Assembly (NCBI GenBank): GCA_016618385.1
Contig: JABFOP010000225.1
Location: forward strand, 15,735 to 79,734
Direction: 5' to 3'
DNA length: 64,000 bases
Source: Nymphon striatum
Lineage: Eukaryota
The position numbers were made by a program, and so were the translations under genes. The notes under the pieces were generated by a model that was not told the DNA's origin, made no database searches, and saw only the letters and a list, made by a program, of their open reading frames with translations. Shown one piece after another: positions 29,819-64,000 of the stretch (position 1 is its first letter; each line of letters starts with the position of its first letter).

Positions 29819-32800
29819 ATTCAGTTTTAGTAGAGAGGCAGAATTGAAAAAGTGGCTTAGTTAAGGATTTAAAAATCATTTTGAGGTAGAGCATGGCATC
29901 CACCCTAGATGGGTTGGCTATGGGATGGGGCATATGCCCAGGTAGGATGACACCTAATATTTTTCCAAAATTTTGGTTTTTTAACCCTTTTCAGTCAAAA
30001 TGCCGGTTTCTCAAAAGTCAATATTTTTAGGGGTAGGGAAAGAAGAATTGGTCATAACAAGTTCAATTTTTATCTTAGAATGGCAATCTGCCATTCAAAT
30101 TCTAGCATTTGATGTCCTCTACAAACTCAAATATGAAATTAAAAAAAATAAAATTATTATAAAGGTATACAGGGTCAAATATCTAGGACTGGCCCTCTAC
30201 CCCCCAAAATACGACCCTTTGTCAAATGAGCCCTATGACTCAATTGTTCTGGTGTAGATGTAGGATTGTTGGGGTATTTTTCGGTAAGGGGACATATTCA
30301 GTCAGTTTTTGAAAAAGGTTTGAACTTGATAGGGCAACTAGACAGGGAGTACTGGGGGTACCAATTTGGACCCTTTTTCGATATTTGGCAAAACTTGGGT
30401 TTTTCACAACGCAACAGTCATGAAGGTAAAAAACTTAGGCCAAGAGCAATAGCTTTAACCTGGACATCGCTCATAACAAGCTGAATTTTTCAGGATAGGT
30501 CCAGGAATATGTGTAGAGTAACATACTAAATGTCTCCATAAATCCCCCTGGAGCTATCACCAAAAATCAAGATGGCGTCCAAAATATCCACCAAGCCTCC
30601 AATTTTGTCATAACTTTGCAACCAGAGAAGCTAAAGTAACAAATAAAGTGTCCAAACACATGTTTTAAGACACAAAGAATCTAATAAAATCATTATTTAG
30701 AGGTTTAAAACGTCCAAAATGGCCGCCAAGTTCCAATTTTGACATAACTTTGCAACCAGAGAAGCTAAAATTACAAATAAAGAGTCCAAACATATGTTTT
30801 AAGGCACAGGGAATCTAATAAAAACCTTATTTAGAGGTTTAAAAGGTTCAAAATGGCCGCCTAGTTCCAACTTTGTCATAACTTTACAACCAGAGAAGCT
30901 AAAGTTACAAATAAAGAGTCCAAACATATGTTTTAAGTCACACGGAATCTAATAAAAACATTATTTAGAGGATTAAAACGTCCAAAATGGCCGCCAAGTT
31001 TCAATTTTGTCATAACTTTGCAACCAGAGAAGCTAAAATTACAAATAAATAGTCCAAACATATGTTTTAAAGCACAAGAAATCTAATAAGCACATTATTT
31101 AAAGGTTAAAAACGTCCAAAATGGCCACCATTTTTATTATTTATTTTTTTATACTTTGTAATCAAACAAGTTATAAATACAAATGAAGTGACTAAACACA
31201 TCTTTTAAGGCAAAGAGAACATATGGTGCAAATATTATCTGTTACGTCAGTATTCATCTTCATTATCTGCTGCAGAATCTTCAACGCTAATGACCACTGA
31301 TGATGGTACAATGTCTTCATCATCGACATCTAATAATTACGGTGTTGTGTTGTTGCAAGTTTGACCACTGCGTTTACTGCACATTGAAGTGCAAAAGAGT
31401 CCAAGTTTATTGCAACTACATGTTATGTTGCTACAACCGTCAGGTTTTCAACTACACGGCACCATGTTGAGCAAAGATTCGGGTGCAACAGGCCTGTCTG
31501 TTTCGACTGGTGCAAGAGTTCCATCATGTGATCGCCATCCCCATTCTATTGGAGGCAAAGTATTACCCATCCATTCTTGAACAGTGTGATAAGTGCGGTA
31601 TGAATGTTTCTTTGCTGCAGCACTAGTTGGAGGAAGACTTGCTAGCTGAAATGATGAACTCGGGGAACAGCGCCCGATTGCCTTTTTGTATGCGATGTGG
31701 CGGTATTTATCAAGTGATTCAAAGTTGCTGGCCCCATAGAGTTTAAGAACAAAGGTTTCCCCGGCTCTTTTCACCTTGTCATGGGTGCTTCCATTTATAC
31801 CAGTCAAATTAGGGCTGGACCTAGAACAAATTGCAATAGAAGGTTTTTTTGGCTTTAACTTGTTCATTAGGTCTCTCTGATGAACATATAAAAAGTCTCC
31901 AATCTAATTTGTCATTCGATTAAAAAGTCGATTGTGAGTCGCCTATTGATCGTAATTGAATTTAGATTGTAGGCAGATTATAGAGCTTGAAGTAAGGAAG
32001 ACAACAATTCTCTAAGACAAGATGGACGTCACAGTCACGTGACTTTCATAGCAACCGCTTGTCTAGGGGCAAAAGAACTTGGTCGCTATGGCTTTGGCCG
32101 TGCTGTAAGTATGGTGATAGAGAACTTTTCCAATTCACTGCTTGTTTTAAATTATTTTAACGAACCGGGTGATTTAAATCAGCCTGAAATCAATTCTGGA
32201 GTATAAACAGGATTTGGATAAGCATTAAAAAGCATGGACTTACAATTCGGTTCTGTTTGATTTGATTAAATCATGTAGTCTGTACAGTGATAGTGTACAT
32301 AAATATCTCGACTCGGACAACCAACAAGCCTTTCGGCATGATTTAAACAAATCAAACATAGTCAAATTGTAAGTCCAGGCTTTTTAATACCTACCCATAT
32401 TCTGTTTATACTCCATAATTGATTCTATGCTGGTTAAAATCATCCAGTAAATCAAAAAAGCATTGGAAAACTTCACAATCACAAGTGCGTCCACAGTTAA
32501 CACGGTCAAGGCCATAGCGACCAAGTTCTTTTGCCCCTAGACAAACGGTTGCTATGCAAGTCACGTGATGAAAGCCCGGATGTTGTCTTACAGAATGTGT
32601 GTCTTGAAATCAAATTCCAAAATTTGGGCAAGTTATAGCCATTCTTATATCATGTACTAAATATAATATTTTCGTTTGAATCTAATTTGTCATTCGATTA
32701 AAAAGTCGATTGTGAGTCGCCTATTGATCGTAATCGAATTTGCATTGTGGGCAAATTATAGAGATTGAAGTAAGGAAGACAACTATGTGCGTCTTGAATC

Positions 32801-39829: not shown

Positions 39830-41235
39830 CCAAGAGCATTAGACGAAATAAGGCCAAACCTGGACATCGCTCATAACAAGCTGAATTTTTCAGGATAGGT
39901 CCAGGAATATGTGTAGAGTAACATACTAAAAGTCCCCATAAATCCCCCTGGAGCTCACTCCAAAAATCAAGATGGCGTCCAAAATACCCGCCAAGCCTCC
40001 AATTTTGTCATAACTTTGCAACCAGATAAGCTAAAATTACAAATAAAGTGTCTAAACATATGTTTTAAGGCACAAGGAATCTAATAAAATCATTATTTAG
40101 AGGTTTAAAACGTCAAAAATGGCCGCCAAGTTCAAATTTTGTCATAACTTTGCAACCGGAGAAGTTAAAATTACAAATAAAGTGTCCAAACATATGCTGT
40201 AAGGCACAAGTAATCTAATAAAATCATTATCTAGAGACATATAAGACAAATAAAGACATATAGCAAACCCGCTGTTCCCGGTTTACAGTCTGTTGTAATA
40301 TATCCTCTCAAGAATCATGATCAAGGGCTCCAGTCTCTCCGCTCAGCAGCTGCACTAGACGCCCTCTTGGTTTTTGGCTGTGTTCTGGAACTATCCCCTT
40401 GTCCTTCATGGAGTGGATTCATGAAAGTAGCCATACAAAGTGACCTATATGAGACAACCAGAATAGAAACTTTGCCCTTTATTAATCTGGACCCCTCCAA
40501 TCCGAGTACTATTTATACAGCATTATGCTTTGCACAAACACAGTGTGAAAAGCATGGTTTGAGAATATGTCCAGTCACATTTGATGAGCCGTTATATATT
40601 AAGGCTGCAGAGATTGTAGCTGCTTCACAAGATCTGGACATAGTGATCATCCGTCTTGTCGGATTTCACCTCTTCATGTCTTATCTTGGAAACATAGGTC
40701 ACATAATGACAGGAAGTGGGCTAGCAGAGCTTTGGGAGACGGTATACGCCAAAGGATCCGTCATACATATGCTATCTGGCCATGCCTTTTCTCGTGCTCT
40801 TCGTGCTCACATTCTTACTTCAGCTGCCCTCATTGGTGTCTTGATGGGTACACCTGGCGCCTTAGAGAAATTAGACAAAGAACACTTAGAGAACCTTTAC
40901 AGAGCCCTTCTTAACCAGGACAAGAACGCCACTGACATAGCCGAGGAGGAATGCGTCAAACAGTTAAGCCAGATCATTTCATAACTCCTTGACCAGGCTG
41001 CAAGTCAGAGCAGAGCAGAGTCAGAGCAAGTCTTCTCTGGTTGCAAAGTTATGACAAAATTGGAGGCTTGGTGGATATTTTGGACGCCATCTTGAATTTT
41101 GGAGAGAGCTCCTGGGGGATTTATGGGGACTTTTGTTATGTTACTCTACACATATTCCTGGACCTATCCTGAAAAATTCAGCTTGTTATGAGCAATGTCC
41201 AGGTTAAAGCTAATGCTATTGGCCTAATAGGTGAA
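39830..41235 (+). mobile_element. Third, rearranged derivative of the long-TIR element. Inner-TIR plus 120-bp-repeat fragments (39830-40250 plus; 41030-41230 minus) flank a 205-aa ORF.
   Basis: Sequence identity to 6700-7100 and 10130-10330. Confidence 0.6.
40367..40984 (+). CDS. ORF of unknown function carried between the TIR-derived fragments (…ICPVTFDEPLYIKAAEIV…GSGLAELWETVYAKGSVIHMLSGHAFSRALRAHIL…). Candidate transposase or passenger fragment.
   Basis: 205-aa uninterrupted ORF in an otherwise non-coding intron. No motif I can assign confidently. Confidence 0.3.
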   Translation: MVFGCVLELSPCPSWSGFMKVAIQSDLYETTRIETLPFINLDPSNPSTIYTALCFAQTQCEKHGLRICPVTFDEPLYIKAAEIVAASQDLDIVIIRLVGFHLFMSYLGNIGHIMTGSGLAELWETVYAKGSVIHMLSGHAFSRALRAHILTSAALIGVLMGTPGALEKLDKEHLENLYRALLNQDKNATDIAEEECVKQLSQIIS

Positions 41236-41494
41236 GGAAAATTCCTATCCTAGCCACCCCCCTTTCAAAATTCCTAGATCTGCCTCTGTATTATCTATAC
41301 TTCCATTAGGAGGCAACCAAAAAATTACCAAATTACGTTGAATCGCATAATGATCAACAATTTACATTTAACGAAGTTAAGCTACATTGAAAAATCTGTG
41401 CTGATTGGCTGAGTCTAATTATGTCCCTTCTTTTTAGCAAATCGTCTTGCATAGTGTTATGCAGGTGCTCCATTTCATCAGGACCGTCCACTCT

Positions 41495-41760
41495 ACATTT
41501 TTTTTTTTCAAATAGTGAATTGTGTTCTTTAACACACAGAAAGTGTGACTATCCTCTACACAGGGCCTCCAACAACATCCTATTTAAGGAACAGAGTATT
41601 TTCTCTCCTAAACCAGCCTCCATCAGATATCAGAGAGGAAAGTACGAGAATGAACAACATAGAGGGTGAAAGAGTGGAGGGCTCCGATAATATTTGAACT
41701 TGGGTTATTCCAGCTCAGAAAGATTATATACCACTCAGACACCTGTGACTGAGAGTTAAA
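41495..41760 (-). mobile_element. SINE copy (minus orientation)
   Basis: Reverse complement of SINE body and head (…ctgagctggaataacccaagttcaaat…). Confidence 0.6.
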
Positions 41761-46649: not shown

Positions 46650-47960
46650 ACGTTTATTTGTTGATCAGGTACTTTGTATACCACATCGACATTCAGTTTA
46701 CCTGGTCAGAGGATCTCTTCCGATGTCAGACAAAAGCTCAACATACTTCAGAATGCTGTCCTTTTTGCGTGGCTTGCCAGAAAGGAAGTAGTGTTGGAAC
46801 TAGTAAGGGACATGCTGGAACATGCCAGTAAGAATAACGCAGTCTCAGGTTTGAGATGCCAAGCAGTAAGAATAGCATTCACTGGTAGTGGTATACATTT
46901 GGGCTTTTTGCTAGTCCTAGCTTTCATAGGCACCTTTTTGTTTTCAGGACAATGGGCTAGTAGCAGCAAGACACCTGTGTCTCTGGACCATACAACAACT
47001 GTAGGTGAATCAGTATGTACACAGTGTAAGAAATACCAGCAGGGTTGCATCTAGAAATTGAAAAAAAGGGGAGATATCCCCCCTAATTTTCAGAAAAAGG
47101 GGGGCATGCCTCATTCTTAAATATTTAAAAGGAGGAATACATTTTTAACTTAATTTCCACTCAAAATTAAAGTCTACTTACAAATCCAAACACTTTATCA
47201 TGCACGTTGTTCGTCTTAGTTCTAGATATACCCATAAACGTTAGTTTTTTTTCCACTTCTGACAATAAATCTTAAACATTCACTTTACTGTCAAACAGTG
47301 AGTAACTTACAAATATCTGATCCCATAGACTAGTAATTTACAGTAATTTATTGCACTAAGCTCACATGGGCTTATGGCAAATACAAGAAAATATAAAATA
47401 ATAAAATAAAAATAATGGTAATGGTAATACAATTACAACAAAAATACCTTCCAAATGGATAGCAGAAGTACTACAAGGCAAGAAAAGATCGAATTTGAAT
47501 GAACAGCTTTTGATGCTGAATCTAGACAAAACCGGCATTTTGACAATGTTTCTTACATAATATTTATTTGAAAAGTACGCACAGCCGTTAAAACTTTGCG
47601 GGCAATTTTATATTATTGCGGGATAGAGCCCGCACAGTCTTGTCATTTTTGCGGGATGAATTAATTTTTCGCGGGAGTCCCGCAATCCCGCGCTCTAGAT
47701 GCAACCCTGTACCAGGTGAGTATCTGCTTCCTCATGAGTGCTTCTTAAGCCTTCCACATCAACTCCAGGCCTACTGCACGACACATCTGTAGCCTCTGTT
47801 AATCCACCAGCTGTTATGACACATTTATTATCAAGTGCATTTCTGATTAGTTCCTGTGAGTGGAAGTTAGCCAGATCGGCTTTGCTCCGAGAGTTACAAA
47901 GGAAACCTTGATAATCCTGGGGTATAGGGATATCAGGAGTTTCAAATACTCTGCAGATGG
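46650..47960 (-). pseudogene. Disrupted copy of the FEN/XPG-like PIN-domain ORF family (…RSTHEEADTHLV | MITE | …VVVWSRDTGVLLLLAHCPENKKV…)
   Basis: HEEADT and DTG..LLLA motifs align with HEEADTRIF and ATDTDIIVLA of the plus-strand copy at 63.6-63.8 kb. Interrupted by the MITE and a 1-nt frameshift. Confidence 0.55.
47046..47711. mobile_element. hAT-like MITE (about 665 bp) with 16-bp TIR CAGGGTTGCATCTAGA and 6-bp TSD TACCAG, inserted into a PIN-like nuclease pseudogene
   Basis: Perfect terminal inverted repeat. Flanks gaaaTACCAG|cagggttg ... caaccctg|TACCAGgtgag. Confidence 0.7.
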
Positions 47961-49246
47961 ATTTACCTTTCTTTCTTCTTGTCTTGCTTGGTTCCTTCCA
48001 TTATAAAGTAACTCATATAATCAAATGGTACATTAACCCTGACAAAATGCCTGACTTATTGGACACCAGATTAAAAAATATTTTTGCAAACTCTCCAAAG
48101 GTACACTACAAGGACTTGGACATTTATCAGCAGTTCCGTCTTCAGAGTGCCATCTATCTCTGCAAGTGCTAGAGGTACTACAAGAAGTTCATATAAAAAG
48201 GAAAAGTTATCAAATTCCTTTATGTTTTGTTCATTAAATGATTCAGCCAGAATTATTAAAATACAAAGTTTTTAAACTTCAATAAACATAAAATGTGATG
48301 ACTTTTGCCTTTAGTCAAACACTGTATAAGGATAAAGTTCAACAACAGAAAATATATTATTTTGGTCCAAATACAAATATATTTAGTGATTTAGTTTGCA
48401 CTCAAATGTTTGAAATTTGTATTCTGTCCATTAGGTCAAAACACTCATAAATCTTTGGGCTATTTCCAAAGTGACTACTGCTTCAATGGATATTATTTAT
48501 TTACAGTTTGCAGTATATATTCACAGTGGGTTTGCCGTTACCTTGTATCTATTCCATAGTATTGCTATATTTATATATACTTTCAAAAACATAACATTTT
48601 AATGCCTATAGTAATGCCTATAGTGTCATTAAAGAATATTTTAGTTTACCTTTGATAAAATGTTTACAACCTGGTAAAATAATCCTTTCTCTGACATATC
48701 TACAATTTGAGTTAAAAAATTTCAGTTTCTAAGATCGTCATATTTGATGAAAAAATTAATTTTTAAAGGTCCACTAAAGTGGGAAAAAAAAATCTAAATC
48801 GTGTGAAAAATAATCAATTAGGTCCACACTAATACACTGAATGCATTTTGGTAAAATTAATTAGCCACTTTTAATAAGAAAAACGGTCTCAAACTACAAG
48901 AATTTACACTCATCCAAATTTGCCATACGTCATACGTGTGACGTCAGACAAGACACTTGTCACTACACCTATCGAGTCAAAATGGCGAGTTCTAATGCCA
49001 GATATGAAAATGTTGACAATGTCATTGACACTCTTTCCTCGTCGTCTGAGATAAGTGAAGATGAAATAGATCTAAGCTCGTGTGAAGACTATTGTGAAGA
49101 AATTGGCGGTTGGGGCAAGTGTGTGGAACCATACAAATTTCAGCCTCTGAAAAGTGTAAGCGAAGACTGTCCCAGTGACACAAATCGAAGACATTTACTG
49201 GGGTTAAAAATGTTATGTTTAAAGGTCTGACTAAGAGACAAAGAAA

Positions 49247-50544: not shown

Positions 50545-50820
50545 TCATCTTTATGTAATGTACTTGCACTATGTACCACTTCACTGGGACCTTCCACCCT
50601 ACTCTTGTTCGAATAGTGAAGTGGGTTCTTTAATGTGCAGAGGGTATGGCTCTCCTTTACATGGAACAGAGTATTTTCTCTCTCAAACCAGCCTGCATTC
50701 AGTATCAGAGAGGAGGGCACGAGAATACACAACATAAAGGATGAAAGAGTGGAGGGTTCAAACCTGGGTCATTCCAGCTCAGAATAGAAATCTTAACCAC
50801 TCAGCCACCACGCTCTCCTA
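50545..50820 (-). mobile_element. SINE copy (minus orientation), nearly full length
   Basis: Reverse complement of ggagagcgtggtggctgagtggttaagat… head plus core. Confidence 0.7.
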
Positions 50821-56933: not shown

Positions 56934-58194
56934 GAAATAAATCGACGGAAGAACTTATTCTTTGATGAAAATCAATAAAAATCTGGAGGAAATTTGGGAC
57001 TTGTGCACAATTACCAAATCTTAAGATTACAACAAAGCAATTACGTATATAGGGATGAAGTCGGGAACAAACTAATCACCTAATACATAAATAGATGTTT
57101 TTAAACAAACTGACAGAGAAAAGTACTGTTAAAATAATTATTGACGATACATTTCAGTACTCATAGTGTTTTCCCAGTCTAATTCTTCAAACATTTAAAA
57201 TAAAAATGATGAACTGAACCTTATCTGTTATTATACTTTCTCGTAGTATTAATGACTTTGTAATACATTCCAATGATTTTACTCCATTGGAAGATGATTT
57301 ACTATAATTACTATCTTCATTCTGGAAATAAAGAAACAACTCAGAAAAAAAAAAAAAATATGGATCATAAACTGATCATTTCTTTAATCCACTATAATAT
57401 ATTTTAAACACACTAATTTGCATATCTCTCATGAATAAAAATAATTTGACACAGATATCATAAAAAATGAGTTATTTTAAAGTTATTTTATTGTCATAAA
57501 TGGAGCTTATAAAACTAATATTTTTGAGTCTTTCAAATGAATGAATTACCAGTAAGTAACAAAAGGAGTGCATATTAAATTATTAATTATGATATTATTA
57601 GTGCTTAGAAGACATCAAGCCAATAGAAAAACTAACTTGTTTCACCTCTTTAAATGCAAGGTTTTAAAAGAAAATGTTCTTTTCGGTGTATTTCTATCTG
57701 ACAAATCTTTTTAACTTTCATCTTATCCCAAACATCAGGGGTCAGCAGACCGGATTTTGCAGAATTTAATGTTTGATGCATCCTTTAATTGGTGCAACAT
57801 TTTGAAGGCCAGGATGCTCTTCTGGATACCATCCTAAATTAAAGATACTAGTGCTATAAGGAGGTTAAGTCACATTTTGACAAAAATTGAGTTAGATACT
57901 TTTTCTAACATTAGATGGCTCTCCGCACAATTTCTAATATTTTCAGAAGATAGTGTTATGTATAAAGAAAGAATATTTGCATTTGAATATACTATATACA
58001 TATATAGTACATATATATATATACAGCCCCCCTACGCCGAAAGGCAGAAGGGGAAAAGATAGAAGAAGAAGAAGATATATATACAGAGTGGTTTAATTTT
58101 TAAAGTTTTTGCCATTTTTCTCGAAATAGATAAAATGTGACTTATATCATTGGGCTCTTCAATTTGGTAAAATGTTTACTATAAAGTTTTCATA

Positions 58195-58440
58195 TAGTGC
58201 AGGTGTACCACTTCACTGGAACTTACAACCTACTCTGCCTTGAATAGTGAAGTGGGTTTTTTAACATGCAGAAGGTACAGCTCTCCTCTAAACCGGACCT
58301 TGATTAACATCATATCCAAGGAACAGAATATTTTTTCATCTGAACCTGTCTGCATCTGATTTGGAGACATAGACACAATAATGCACAATGTAAAAAATAA
58401 ATAGTAAATAGGAGGTTCAAATGAGATTCAAAATTTGGTC
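58195..58440 (-). mobile_element. SINE copy (minus orientation, diverged)
   Basis: Core cttcactggaac…gaatagtgaagtgggtttttaacatgcagaagg. Confidence 0.5.
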
Positions 58441-59639: not shown

Positions 59640-59880
59640 TTATATCCATTAGTTTTAGCATTCTTCTTCGAGTAGTTAAGTTGGTTCTTTAACGTGCATA
59701 GATTTGGCTCTCCTTTACTCAAGATCTCTATTAACGTCTTTTCTTAGGGATGGAGTATTTTCTCATTCAAACCAGCCCACATCTGATTCAATGAGAACGA
59801 TTATACACAACGTAAAGAAAGAATGGGAGTTTCAAGCGAGATTTGAACCCAAGTCAATTTGACTCTACACACAAGTGGGA
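59640..59880 (-). mobile_element. SINE copy (minus orientation, diverged)
   Basis: Core …gttaagttggttctttaacgtgcatag… and head remnant …gatttgaacccaagtc…. Confidence 0.5.
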
Positions 59881-61549: not shown

Positions 61550-62070
61550 GAAATGACCACTCATTCTTTTTGTTATAAGATTGGCTTTTATATGAAACAA
61601 GATTCAATTTGATTGGACCATCCATGAGGTCACCAGAGGTCAAAAGGTTACGGAAAGTGGGTCAAGCTGAAAATTTAACGCCTTTATCAAACATTTCACA
61701 TTTTCCCTACTTTAATCTTAATATATCCAGATTTTCACACACAAAATATGTTCTTTGCATCTCTCTAATGTTTTTGGGAAAGTAATGCTCTGATTGAACT
61801 TAAATTACTGGCATGAATGTCAATTTAAATTTGCATAAATTAGAAAAAAAATCACCAAAATCCGGCATTTGACTATATATCCCATAATAAAGAGTTGAAT
61901 GCAACAAATTACCACTCATTCTATTTGTTATAAGCTTGGCTTTATATGAAACAAGATTCAATGTGATTGGACCATCCATGAGATCACCAGAGGTCAAAAG
62001 GTCACGGAAAGTGGGTTAAGCTGAAAATGTAACGGCTTTATCAAATAATTCACATTTTCCCTACTTTGTA
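61550..62070. repeat. Two ~165-bp direct repeat units (accactcattct…ttgttataag…ggaccatccatgag…ccctactttaatct) about 350 bp apart
   Basis: 61555-61720 approximately equals 61905-62065. Confidence 0.6.
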
Positions 62071-62081
62071 GACTTTGGAGT

Positions 62082-62340
62082 CGCGGTGGCTGAGTGGTTA
62101 AGATCGTTAGATTTGAACCCCGGCACTTTTCACCGTTTTACGTTGTGTATTCTCGTACTCTCCTCTCTGATATTAGATGTAAGCTGATTTTAGAGAAAAA
62201 ATACTCCATCCCTCGGATAGGAAGTTAAATGGAGGTCCCGTGTAAAGGAGAGCCATACCCTCTACACGTTAAAGAACCCACTTCACTATTCGAAGAAGAG
62301 TAGGGTGACAATTCCCGATGAAGTGGTACACTTGCATTAC
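62082..62340 (+). mobile_element. SINE copy (plus orientation) immediately upstream of the PIN-like ORF
   Basis: ggagtcgcggtggctgagtggttaagatcgttagatttgaaccccggc… plus conserved core. Confidence 0.7.
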
Positions 62341-62397
62341 ATCAATTAGGACTGCAATAGAAATAAGTGTTTGGACTTTCTTGCGTCATGATCCTAG

Positions 62398-64000
62398 GTG
62401 AACATACTGTTTTCAGAAACAGCACCAGAAGTGCACGAGGAGTTTGCAGCTGGCAAATTCACAGTTCACCAGACTGCAAGAGACTTCAATGGTGTGTGGA
62501 CAGACCTTGCCCTTGAACAGACCTACAATAGGGAAGGTAAAACAAGTATCTTTAAGGGTATAACGCAGTTGGAGTCAGCACGAGAAAAGTATATTAAGGC
62601 TCTACCGTTTATGACCTCCGTCTCTGAAAGTGTAAAACAGATGGCACACATGACCTCGTCGCAATCTGACCACCACGAGAAACTAAGGAAAGACGACATG
62701 GAAGCTGTGTTGCAGATCAAACGGACCGTGGAAGAGAAGATGCAAAACCCATTCCATCCTTCACTTGCGACAGATAAACTAATGAATATATCCACAGGTC
62801 AGATTCTTGCAGCAACTACCCTGGTAGATGCCAAACGTCTAGACTTGAAGGCAATGGATGCTGCCACTACGACGAATGCAGACAAGATTGTCTAACCGAA
62901 AATGGAAACATTCGCCACACATCTGATGAAAATTCAGAAAAAGATCGACACTGTGAAAGAAGTCATCAGAGAGGAGAGTGCAGTGACAAGGGCACTTTGT
63001 TTCGCACAGAATCTGAGTGATGAGGCACGGACTGAGGGATTTAGTTACGAATGGCTTGAGTACCCTCCGTCGTTGTTTGAGCCAGAGAAAAATGGATATT
63101 CTATGCGGAAAGGTTGCAAATCCACTTATCTATCCACTCTACAGGCAGAAGTTGCCAACTCATGGGAACCGTTAAAAGAGTTGCCTCCTTCAGCAGCTGA
63201 TGCAGTTTATGTAGTCGATGCAAAGGCATTCATCCAGCGGCTCAACGCACTTGGTTCGAGTGCATTTGGCCAACTTCAGGAAAGGTACAGGGAGAAACTC
63301 TTGAATATGAAACCCAGACATTGCACTGGAGTGCATTTCGTGGACGATCAATAAGATTTTGGGTTAAAGAGTCTAAAGGGGGATGAACGCCAGAGACGGG
63401 AGTCAAATATCAACTTGCCAGAGTATGTTCCAGCGGACAGCATGAAAATCCCTTATTGGAAGACATTGCTATTTAACCCTTGTAACAAGACCAATATGCT
63501 GTCTTATCTTGCTTCACGTTGGTCTCAGGAGGCATCCTGGCCTGCTGGCTTCTGCCTGGTCCTTGGGGTGAACGCCCAGGCAACTCGTGTGACGCAGACA
63601 GAACATACCGATGTTGATGAGCTGTATTGCCCTAACCACGAGGAGGCGGACACCAGAATCTTTGCTCACATTGCTAGTTGTGACGACAACAACGTATTTT
63701 TCATTCAGGCTACAGATACAGATATCATCGTCTTGGCAATGTATCATTTCCCTCGATTGTCAAACGTTGTTGAGTTATGGGTGGAGAAGAATGATCTGTT
63801 CCTCTTCATCCATGATTTAGTGAATGAGTCGGCCAAAGCAGTTGGAAAGGACGTGTTAGCACTCACAGACACACTGCTCATCTCATACATTCTGTCCGGT
63901 TGTGATTCGGTGAGCTTTCCTTTCAAACGAGGTAAGAAGAGAACAGTGAAAGTCGCACTCGAGCATGTTGATAAACACCCAGCTTTGTCCAATTGCATCC
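62398..64000 (+). CDS. Long ORF (runs off the window) encoding a 5'-3' exonuclease/FEN-like PIN nuclease domain. Two in-frame TAA codons (62893, 63352) suggest a pseudogene or decaying transposon ORF.
   Basis: Motifs AVYVVDAKAFIQRLNALG (compare vLLVDGssLlyRa), NHEEADTRIFAHIA (compare GYEADDvIatLA) and FIQATDTDIIVLAMY (compare vvTgDKDllQLv) in the canonical order and spacing of the 53EXO/XPG-N/I fold. The same frame continues across both stops. Confidence 0.55.

Follow-up and report, generated by a model that had tools for sequence, protein, structure and literature searches.

A probable remnant of an AcademX DNA transposon with a predicted FEN-fold nuclease domain in Nymphon striatum

What is a decaying, multi-copy open reading frame that resembles a structure-specific nuclease doing in the genome of Nymphon striatum? 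The question is raised by the end of a 64,000-nucleotide stretch of contig JABFOP010000225.1, referred to here as the window. There, a sequence-only reading had noticed a plus-strand frame with the blocks YVVDA, HEEADTRIF and ATDTDIIVLA, all three of which are indeed present between 63208 and 63738. It had left three origins to choose from: a transposon, a virus, or an expansion specific to this lineage. The analysis described below favors the first of these and neither of the others: the nuclease forms one domain of the AcademX transposase polyprotein, and the segment 62410-64000 is very probably a fragment of a dead AcademX DNA transposon with a FEN-fold nuclease domain. Accordingly, what had been taken for a stand-alone nuclease gene is an internal fragment of a ∼1500-aa transposase, and the dispersed nuclease sequences are the usual debris of transposons and do not amount to a new family of host genes.

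An internal fragment of an Academ transposase

Read from 62398, frame 1 runs for 534 codons up to the window end and contains exactly two in-frame stops, both TAA. The homology to the family begins at 62410-62416, and not at 62398, as judged from tblastn, the profile HMM and the relatives. The signal is not a product of chance: the profile HMM, built from 27 homologues, matches 62410-63996 with E = 1.3e-215 (hmmsearch), and the G+C content is 46% in the ORF region vs 33% elsewhere in the window. The fragment (62410-64000, plus strand) covers profile positions 139-680 of 843 and continues past the window end; its identity is 41% to full-length relatives (tblastn) and 93-96% to gene models of N. 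striatum.

Both stop codons had been reported by the sequence-only reading, and both are confirmed. The first, at 62893-62895, stands where the relatives have Q (ADKIVQPKMETF), and the second, at 63352-63354, falls within the second acidic motif, so that the window reads VDDQ*DFG where the relatives read VGDQYDFG or VGDRYD. With Q and Y found at these places in close relatives, each stop represents a single-base nonsense change, CAA to TAA in the first case and TAY to TAA in the second.

The key to the identity of the frame is its beginning. The segment 62410-62520 (plus strand) encodes the C-terminal end of an Academ DDE transposase, i.e., its last ∼37 codons, as detected by BLASTP and tblastn with published Academ domains; the remaining transposase is absent. 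Six published sequences (Kojima 2020, Data S3) match window codons 3-42 with E values from 4.6e-7 to 8e-3, and the predicted third catalytic residue is the E of WTDLALEQ (codon 62515-62517). After these last transposase codons, the window copy still has the linker and the larger part of the nuclease, while the Cys finger lies past base 64000; measured against a full-length relative, it has lost ∼3.4 kb of coding sequence at the 5' side. This copy is dead: it lacks the transposase core, bears two nonsense codons as well as an inserted SINE, and runs past the window edge.

What does an intact relative look like? With BLASTP, the six published Academ domains match the N-terminal parts of full-length relatives (E values of 1e-21 to 3e-41), as well as an upstream ORF of contig L001 that carries the first catalytic D (3e-11 to 6e-6). 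Each of four full-length relatives has a complete Academ transposase domain, with E values between 1e-25 and 1e-118, the best match extending across 413/413 residues, and in these proteins the nuclease is C-terminal to the transposase. The spacing between the first two catalytic aspartates is 167, 168 and 183 aa in three of them (the fourth, P0284, is left out of this count as the automatic pattern mis-hit) and 169 aa in L001. A GxxH motif, in the form (L/M)GxFH, occurs 25 aa past the second aspartate in all four, which also have 9-10 Cys within their last 75 residues; for P0198, the Pfam TCR (tesmin CXC) model scores 26.5 bits vs a cut-off of 23.5. Many of the clusters matched by the profile are 1400-1620 aa long, and their nuclease falls at roughly residues 1050-1530. 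In contigs L001 and L002, the order is transposase, nuclease and Cys region, flanked by inverted repeats on both sides.

An intact AcademX, a cut-and-paste element, encodes one protein of ∼1400-1600 aa between inverted terminal repeats, in which the N-terminal region is followed by the DDE transposase with its RNase-H fold, a linker, a 5' nuclease of the FEN/XPG/Xrn1 type and a tesmin-like CXC (Cys8-9) finger. This corresponds to the published description of AcademX as a DDE transposase with an "XPG nuclease" plus a Cys-rich finger in one protein, with examples such as Academ-3_BF, Academ-2_SP, Academ-1_Ami and Academ-1_CGi (Kojima 2020, PMC7165386). Kojima 2020 (Mob DNA 11:15, PMC7165386) cites Kapitonov & Jurka 2010 for this lineage of the Academ superfamily. 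The same paper gives an unusually long D1-D2 spacing of 138-192 aa for Academ, a G/A/E/QxxH motif following D2, and target-site duplications of 3 bp for AcademX of animals. The likeness extends to the D-D spacing (167-183 aa), the GxxH motif, the third motif (...D.x.EQ), the nuclease, the Cys finger, the inverted repeats of the relatives and the presence in animals. The window copy differs in being fragmentary and without the transposase core, and in having a duplicated ∼160-bp unit and a SINE in its terminal region. As the identity to the published Academ transposase domains compared is only 26-47%, the sequences studied here form a new family inside the AcademX lineage.

Could the transposase belong instead to another superfamily, such as the Kolobok, P, hAT or MuDR relatives that bear a C/DxxH motif, or to a composite element with a captured nuclease? 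Some observations leave room for this: Pfam gives only a weak DUF6589 match across the transposase region, the Academ GxxH motif is analogous to the C/DxxH of other superfamilies (Kojima 2020, PMC7165386), and a search for short direct repeats of 3-4 bp flanking the inverted repeats of L001 and of L002 gave no convincing match, the right arm of L002 reaching the contig end. Against this stand the full-length matches to published Academ domains, up to E = 1e-118, together with the D-D spacing, the position of GxxH and the order of nuclease and Cys finger, which are those of published AcademX; another superfamily is highly improbable.

The nuclease domain and its predicted fold

The FEN/XPG/Xrn1-like 5'-nuclease domain occupies 63040-64000 (plus strand) and reaches the window edge right after an H3TH-like motif. 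Its landmarks, all on the plus strand, are YVVDAKAFIQR (63208-63240, with the YVVDA core at 63208-63222), DDQ*D (63343-63357, inside HFVDDQ*DFG at 63334-63363), HEEADTRIF (63637-63663), ATDTDIIVLA (63709-63738) and the H3TH-like GCD...GKK motif, SGCDSVSFPFKRGKK (63895-63939).

The proposal of a FEN/XPG-like fold finds support in the predicted structure, and not in sequence profiles. XPG_N and XPG_I, two of the profiles that had been suggested for checking it, gave no match, and neither did 5_3_exonuc_N. More broadly, the window translation, the full-length relatives and 18 domain sequences matched none of the Pfam XPG, FEN and 5'-3' exonuclease families at E ≤ 10, the sole exception in Pfam being PIN_4 with E = 0.14 in one of the 18 domain members. 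Sequence searches of the PDB with a single sequence and two profiles (phmmer/hmmsearch) returned nothing, and when the domain profile was compared to human FEN1 with hhalign, the probability was 0.2, not significant, and the alignment was limited to the H3TH stretch. In the absence of matches in Pfam and the PDB, the domain is best regarded as a fold-level relative, placed outside those Pfam families.

On the structural side, the model points to a fold of the FEN/XPG/Xrn1-like 5' nucleases: the predicted structure has a PIN-like α/β core along with the helical arch and H3TH arrangement typical of these enzymes. Among 18 diverse members, D61, D104, E211, D213 and D240 are invariant, and E210, D238 and D301 are at least 90% conserved. 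Each of these carboxylates sits where the FEN1 topology would lead one to expect it, at the end of a strand or the start of a helix, and it is on topology that their equivalence is based. The domain is thus predicted to keep a complete FEN-type active site, in which none of the seven acidic metal ligands is missing, along with the DNA-binding H3TH motif. The closest structural match is Xrn1 (301 aligned residues) and not XPG, and the overall similarity is greatest to Xrn1 and Exo1; for this reason, the published label "XPG nuclease", the only description given to this domain so far, is looser than the data.

FEN, XPG, Exo1, GEN1, Xrn1 and T5-exonuclease form the FEN-like clade of the PIN-domain-like superfamily. 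Compared to them, the AcademX domain has an insert of ∼100 residues, with extra strands, between the second and third acidic motifs. Its fusion partners differ as well: a transposase and a CXC finger take the place of the PCNA-interacting or repair-complex regions of FEN-type nucleases.

Large DNA viruses (NCLDV, nudivirus, alloherpesvirus) encode FEN-1/XRN-like enzymes, so that an endogenous piece of such a virus had to be considered as well. Foldseek against viral models did return 17 matches at E ≤ 1e-3, comprising viral XRN, FEN-1, XPG and the alloherpesvirus protein Allo54. However, their identity is 9-16% and their TM-scores reach 0.51, no better than the matches to the cellular FEN family, and therefore they reflect the shared fold only. 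Moreover, the nuclease is flanked by an Academ transposase and by a CXC finger, not by viral genes, and no viral genes neighbor it in L001 or L002. A viral origin is extremely unlikely.

Terminal repeats, copies and neighboring fragments

If the fragment is part of a transposon, does anything of its termini survive? Upstream of it, 61551-61830 (plus strand) is a probable left terminal and subterminal inverted-repeat region, identified by blastn against L002 and by a four-way alignment. Within it, 61580-61810 aligns colinearly with the two inverted-repeat arms of L002, a related AcademX element (1118-1215 / 7867-7964; blastn, both orientations). Self-blastn reveals a second copy of the terminal ∼160-bp unit (61551-61713) at 61906-62067 (plus strand), 92.6% identical; in other genomic copies, the partner of this unit is found 3' of the ORF and inverted. 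This inverted partner shows up in gene models P0004 and P0010, whose C-terminal tails match 61943-61845 (minus strand). Judging from these alignments, a terminal-repeat-like region (61551-62067) probably survives upstream of the ORF fragment, the basis for common termini being gene-model fragments and one related metagenome contig.

Between this region and the ORF fragment lies a tRNA-derived SINE-like repeat, foreign to the Academ element (62078-62341, plus strand). Five further copies with 74-80% identity are present in the window, and the six were aligned; the tRNA-like head upstream of the ORF is part of this repeat. Scans of the upstream region with ARAGORN (for tRNAs) and Rfam gave no call.

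A breakpoint shared at the 5' side, ET|APEVHEEF, was evaluated as a terminus of the mobile unit and rejected. At the junction, the codons read C|AA, A|AA or G|AA, which suits a cag|AA acceptor-like site chosen by the gene predictor, and other copies continue through the junction uninterrupted; hence, it is no evidence of a common truncation.

That the family is dispersed and multi-copy, as had been suspected, is borne out by the protein clusters: 42 of the 79 found are gene models of N. striatum, located on many different contigs, and these clusters (at least 42) are 70-96% identical. Gene prediction has often joined the copies, on dozens of contigs, to unrelated host genes, producing chimeric models with SLC23A2, CCR4-NOT subunit 6, sorting nexin-12 and others. 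Beyond this species, there are homologues in molluscs, cnidarians, fish and insects, along with thousands of clusters from metagenomes, and the nuclease-domain profile matches 29,216 clusters among 1.84 billion representatives.

Might these copies be a host gene family instead, a structure-specific nuclease, expanded in this lineage or domesticated and no longer belonging to a mobile element, with the window copy as a pseudogenised paralogue? Several features invite the idea. Many N. striatum models retain long open frames across the nuclease and CXC region, variants deleted for the transposase core are numerous (the P0015 cluster has 24 members), and the first two catalytic aspartates occur in none of the N. 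striatum models retrieved. Yet internal-deletion derivatives are the usual fate of DNA transposons. In addition, the frame of the window copy runs on from the end of an Academ transposase and has nonsense codons, inverted-repeat-like sequence lies upstream, and fusions with unrelated genes on dozens of contigs are what scattered insertions are expected to give. A host family is, for these reasons, very unlikely.

The possibility that a single locus had been duplicated by mis-assembly is suggested by the nature of the genome: a later paper, as far as its account of the assembly goes, describes the only published one for N. striatum as fragmented and obtained from 40 pooled individuals. However, protein-level divergence among the copies amounts to 4-30%, and they vary in internal deletions and in flanking genes. 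This divergence effectively refutes duplication in the assembly, which the sequence-only reading had put forward as one finding that would undo its claim. The homologues in other animals and in metagenomes also speak against an artefact, whose probability is negligible, and so does the presence of four or five separate fragments, from different lineages, in this one window.

One of these fragments had been reported as a second, antisense copy split by a MITE. The fragment does exist, on the minus strand from 47997 to 46733, and its interruption is real. The first piece, at 47707-47997 (minus strand), is a diverged Academ-type nuclease fragment that ends at HEEADT (hmmsearch, E = 1.3e-10, profile positions 466-567). 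It is followed by a MITE-like insertion of 670 bp (47040-47709), with perfect 16-bp TIRs, CAGGGTTGCATCTAGA, and a 6-bp duplication, CTGGTA, on both sides. The continuation, at 46733-47032 (minus strand), is frameshifted and has degenerate equivalents of the DTD and GCD blocks; hmmsearch of this segment alone gave a weak score (6.2 bits, profile positions 217-318), colinear with the 47707-47997 piece. The part of the claim that fails is the kinship: with ∼28% identity to the family profile, the fragment is what remains of a different and older Academ lineage rather than a decayed member of the main family. Besides this and the main fragment, the window contains three more fragments of the superfamily.

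For genome annotation, the main fragment is transposon debris to be masked, and it has little consequence otherwise; the dozens of "hypothetical proteins" and chimeric models of N. striatum are annotation artefacts.

A second nuclease in the transposase

The AcademX nuclease itself is of wider interest, since no curated sequence profile recognizes it despite its tens of thousands of protein clusters. Why does a DDE transposase have a second nuclease, where the sister lineage AcademH has a helicase? The predicted FEN-type site makes this question testable. In an intact element, the DDE domain would nick the DNA and transfer the 3' ends, while the fused FEN-like domain might cut the complementary 5' strands at the junction between transposon and flank. 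Alternatively, it might trim 5' flaps that the 3-bp stagger of the target leaves behind, and the CXC finger could help to recognize the repeated terminal units. Reasoning from the domain arrangement, we consider a partnership in which the FEN-like domain performs 5'-strand cleavage or flap trimming for the DDE domain to be possible, if somewhat doubtful; a role in flap or gap repair after integration is about equally likely. More tentative still, and rather unlikely, is the broader proposal that AcademX elements are two-nuclease transposases, a single-polypeptide eukaryotic counterpart of TnsA/TnsB, and contain an unrecognised FEN clade of at least 29,000 clusters at 50% identity. If it were true, derivatives reduced by deletion to the nuclease and the CXC finger, of the kind abundant in this genome, could supply nuclease activity in trans, or titrate it.

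Two known systems help to place the family. AcademH shares the transposase superfamily, and differs in having a separate RecQ-like superfamily II helicase, along with 9-10-bp TSDs (Kojima 2020, PMC7165386), where AcademX has the nuclease and the finger; given that both of the latter are present, the family described here is not AcademH.

The other system is Tn7, in which the DDE enzyme TnsB works with TnsA: TnsA cuts the 5' ends, and the element excises completely. The likeness is that a DDE enzyme and a second, unrelated nuclease meet in one transposition machine, and it is one of analogy, not of homology. TnsA, a polypeptide of its own, is folded like a restriction endonuclease, and the second nuclease of AcademX differs in both respects, with a predicted FEN fold and a place in the same polypeptide as the transposase.

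Main ORF and the AcademX lineage

Read in frame 1, the stretch that begins at 62398 and reaches the window end comprises 534 codons, of which exactly two are stops, each a TAA (62893-62895 and 63352-63354, + strand). These stops and the three motif blocks reported in the sequence-only reading are confirmed in order and position: YVVDAKAFIQR (63208-63240), HEEADTRIF (63637-63663), and ATDTDIIVLA (63709-63738), with a fourth conserved block, SGCDSVSFPFKRGKK, at 63895-63939, all on the + strand. Close relatives carry Q and Y at the two stop positions, so that each TAA is a single-base nonsense mutation; no frameshift was found in the main ORF across 1.6 kb. The G+C content of the region is 46%, against 33% in the remainder of the window. 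As judged from the profile and the relatives, family homology begins at 62410-62416, and the ORF matches a 27-protein profile HMM over 62410-63996 (E=1.3e-215).

What does this frame belong to? The related metagenome contig L001, which holds the relative P0033, has a 691-aa ORF directly 5' of a 930-aa ORF, with the DDE-transposase-type motifs FDNLD..., TCDQAIY, and GGFH. About 140 bp (L001 3428-3570) keep the two ORFs apart, past the second catalytic D and ahead of GGFH. The proteins P0067 and P0055 read through where L001 is split, so that this stretch must be either a lesion or a short intron, and in P0067 the two ORFs form one continuous protein. The published architecture of AcademX is exactly that seen in L001, with 3-bp TSDs in animals; for Academ, a D1-D2 spacing of 138-192 residues and a G/A/E/QxxH motif after the second D are described (Kojima 2020, PMC7165386).

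Six Academ transposase-domain sequences from Data S3 of the same paper (Kojima 2020, PMC7165386) served for BLASTP comparison. They match the ∼240 residues at the N-terminus of P0033 and of a second relative, P0032 (E 1e-21 to 3e-41), the upstream ORF of L001, with the first catalytic D region (E 3e-11 to 6e-6), and codons 3-42 of the window (E 4.6e-7 to 8e-3). It follows from the last match that the window ORF starts within the extreme end of the transposase domain and keeps the E of WTDLALEQ (codon 62515-62517), which is predicted as its third catalytic residue.

A profile of the nuclease domain only, run against 1.84 billion representative proteins (E<=1e-3), matches 29,216 clusters; in many of these the protein is 1,400-1,620 aa long and the nuclease lies near residues 1050-1530. 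In all four long relatives inspected (P0180, P0198, P0211, and P0284) the Academ transposase domain is complete (E 1e-25 to 1e-118, full-length coverage), (L/M)GxFH lies 25 residues past D2, and there are 9-10 C-terminal cysteines. The D1-D2 spacing is 167-183 residues in three; in P0284 the automatic pattern mis-hit, and the true first transposase motif lies near residue 484. The cysteine cluster of P0198 is above the Pfam threshold for the tesmin/TSO1 CXC domain. The intact family is shown to fuse DDE transposase, FEN-type nuclease, and CXC finger always in that order. Assignment to some other transposon superfamily is unlikely, given the full-length matches to published Academ domains. The window element belongs to the already described AcademX lineage and counts as a new family member for the N. 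striatum genome.

Of the origins proposed earlier from the sequence, a transposon-borne nuclease is the one supported, the ORF being continuous with the end of an Academ transposase domain. A lineage-specific expansion or domestication of a host gene is unlikely, since the frame runs on from a transposase remnant, probable terminal repeats lie 5' of the ORF, and the copies are scattered and decayed.

Copies in N. striatum and the state of the window copy

A protein search returned 79 clusters. N. striatum gene models make up 42, spread over many contigs at 70-96% identity to the window, which bears out the multi-copy, dispersed family noticed at first; the best models reach 95-96% and none 100%. 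According to a later paper, the assembly was built from 40 pooled animals. The remaining clusters are unnamed metagenome or assembly proteins (25-64% identity) and one Tegillarca granosa protein named "Tesmin/TSO1-like CXC domain-containing"; outside Nymphon, a bivalve, a gastropod, and a sea anemone supply the closest named relatives. An assembly duplication is excluded, because the copies have diverged from one another and the family occurs across phyla. Full-length relatives, of 850-930 aa or longer, exceed the window fragment on both sides.

As for the gene models themselves, Academ fragments are fused to host genes in P0005, P0018, P0024, P0027, P0057, and P0078 (partners: RRP36, SLC23A2, i.e., solute carrier 23 member 2, CCR4-NOT subunit 6, sorting nexin-12, a secretin-type GPCR, and a pancreatic-lipase-like protein), and P0001 merges two adjacent copies; such models probably arose as annotation artefacts from a repeat left unmasked. 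One abundant deletion type joins WTDLA straight to MAFIQRF, so that the linker and the nuclease's first catalytic strand are lost (clusters P0015-P0019, P0024, P0027, and P0053; P0015 alone has 24 member sequences). None of the N. striatum models retrieved reaches the first two catalytic aspartates.

The window copy would represent another type of deletion. Sequence 5' of the main ORF does not code for the rest of the transposase; there, a unit at 61551-61713 recurs at 61906-62067 (92.6% identity). The related contig L002 carries a relative 58% identical, in which transposase, nuclease, and C-terminal region follow one another, between inverted repeats at 1118-1215 and 7867-7964; both arms are colinear with window 61580-61810. 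For 61943-61845, the match to the C-terminal tails of N. striatum models P0004 and P0010 is on the opposite strand, which places the same sequence inverted and 3' of the ORF in other genomic copies. Read most simply, this is an element with an internal deletion: a left terminal-repeat region, a SINE insertion and a ∼3.4-kb deletion relative to L002, and then an ORF that starts in the last part of the transposase domain. The gene models P0003, P0004, P0006, and P0018 contain parts of these upstream sequences, ordered as in the window, which suggests that the deleted derivative, or its locus, was itself copied. Lacking a transposase core, with two nonsense codons and its 5' region interrupted, the window copy is inert.

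The SINE-like, tRNA-derived repeat lies at 62078-62341 (+) and has five other copies in the window, at 4955-5143 (+), 41455-41676 (-), 50572-50765 (-), 58189-58337 (-), and 59662-59816 (-). These six copies in 64 kb are 73-80% identical, with the head GGCTGAGTGGTTAAG...GGTTCGAATC; ARAGORN and Rfam made no call on the repeat.

Other Academ pieces in the window

A second antisense copy split by a MITE had also been described. The fragment and the insertion are real: a family-profile match at 47707-47997 (-) ends at HEEADT (E=1.3e-10), and a weak, colinear continuation follows past a frameshift at 47032-46733 (-). Between them, the 670-bp MITE-like element (47040-47709) ends in perfect TIRs of 16 bp, CAGGGTTGCATCTAGA, and is flanked by a duplication of 6 bp, CTGGTA; its termini are hAT-like, and no further copies occur within the window. 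The common family did not stand, for at ∼28% identity the fragment is a relic of another Academ lineage rather than a decayed twin of the main copy. A transposase-domain fragment at 40394-40966 (+), spanning the second catalytic D and the GGFH region, belongs to yet another lineage, different from that of the main copy, and is nearest to the published Academ-2_HM (E=1.8e-34) and Academ-1_CGi (E=3.4e-30).

Two segments of ∼1.2 kb, 7001-8186 and 30716-31902, are 97.9% identical and contain C-terminal Academ fragments at 7613-8074 (-) and 31331-31789 (-), each covering profile positions 687-837 (E about 2e-18). Either a segmental duplication or a further non-autonomous derivative may account for them. 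The neighbouring sequence has short tandem repeats.

Nuclease fold and proposed role

The FEN/XPG-like fold proposed initially holds at the structural level, in the predicted model, and fails in sequence: Pfam gave no match to XPG_N, XPG_I, or 5'-3' exonuclease in the window translation, the full-length relatives, or 18 domain sequences, and the single related match was PIN_4 (E=0.14) in one of the 18. Sequence and profile searches of the PDB gave no matches, and hhalign of the domain profile against FEN1 aligned the H3TH stretch alone, not significantly. The full P0033 model has pLDDT >90 through the nuclease region, and the domain-only model (residues 436-850) has pLDDT 90.7 and pTM 0.91; Foldseek retrieves the same families with either. 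A viral origin is unlikely, since matches to viral models are at fold level only (9-16% identity) and L001 and L002 have no viral neighbour genes.

D61, D104, E211, D213, and D240 are invariant in the domain alignment, and E210, D238, and D301 are conserved at >=90%. In the model, the conserved acidic residues are found where strand 1 ends, past strand 2, where a helix begins, past the strand that follows, and in the loop that leads into the H3TH-like helices. This predicted layout is that of the seven FEN1 carboxylates, by a correspondence of topology and not of superposed coordinates, and the modelled active-site signature of a FEN-type nuclease is shown to be intact in the family. The domain's nearest relatives in structure are Xrn1 and Exo1 rather than XPG.

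What would such a nuclease do for a transposon? A link to DNA repair has been suggested, with the AcademH helicase as a functional alternative (Kojima 2020, PMC7165386). Our preferred hypothesis, offered tentatively, is second-strand cleavage: the DDE domain would cut and transfer the 3' ends, and the FEN-like domain would cut the 5' strands where transposon and flank meet in a distorted junction. The main alternative, to which we give about the same weight, is that the FEN-like domain would act once the strands have been transferred, trimming 5' flaps or gaps where the target is staggered by 3 bp. Under second-strand cleavage, the FEN-like domain would resemble TnsA, which cleaves the 5' strands for Tn7.
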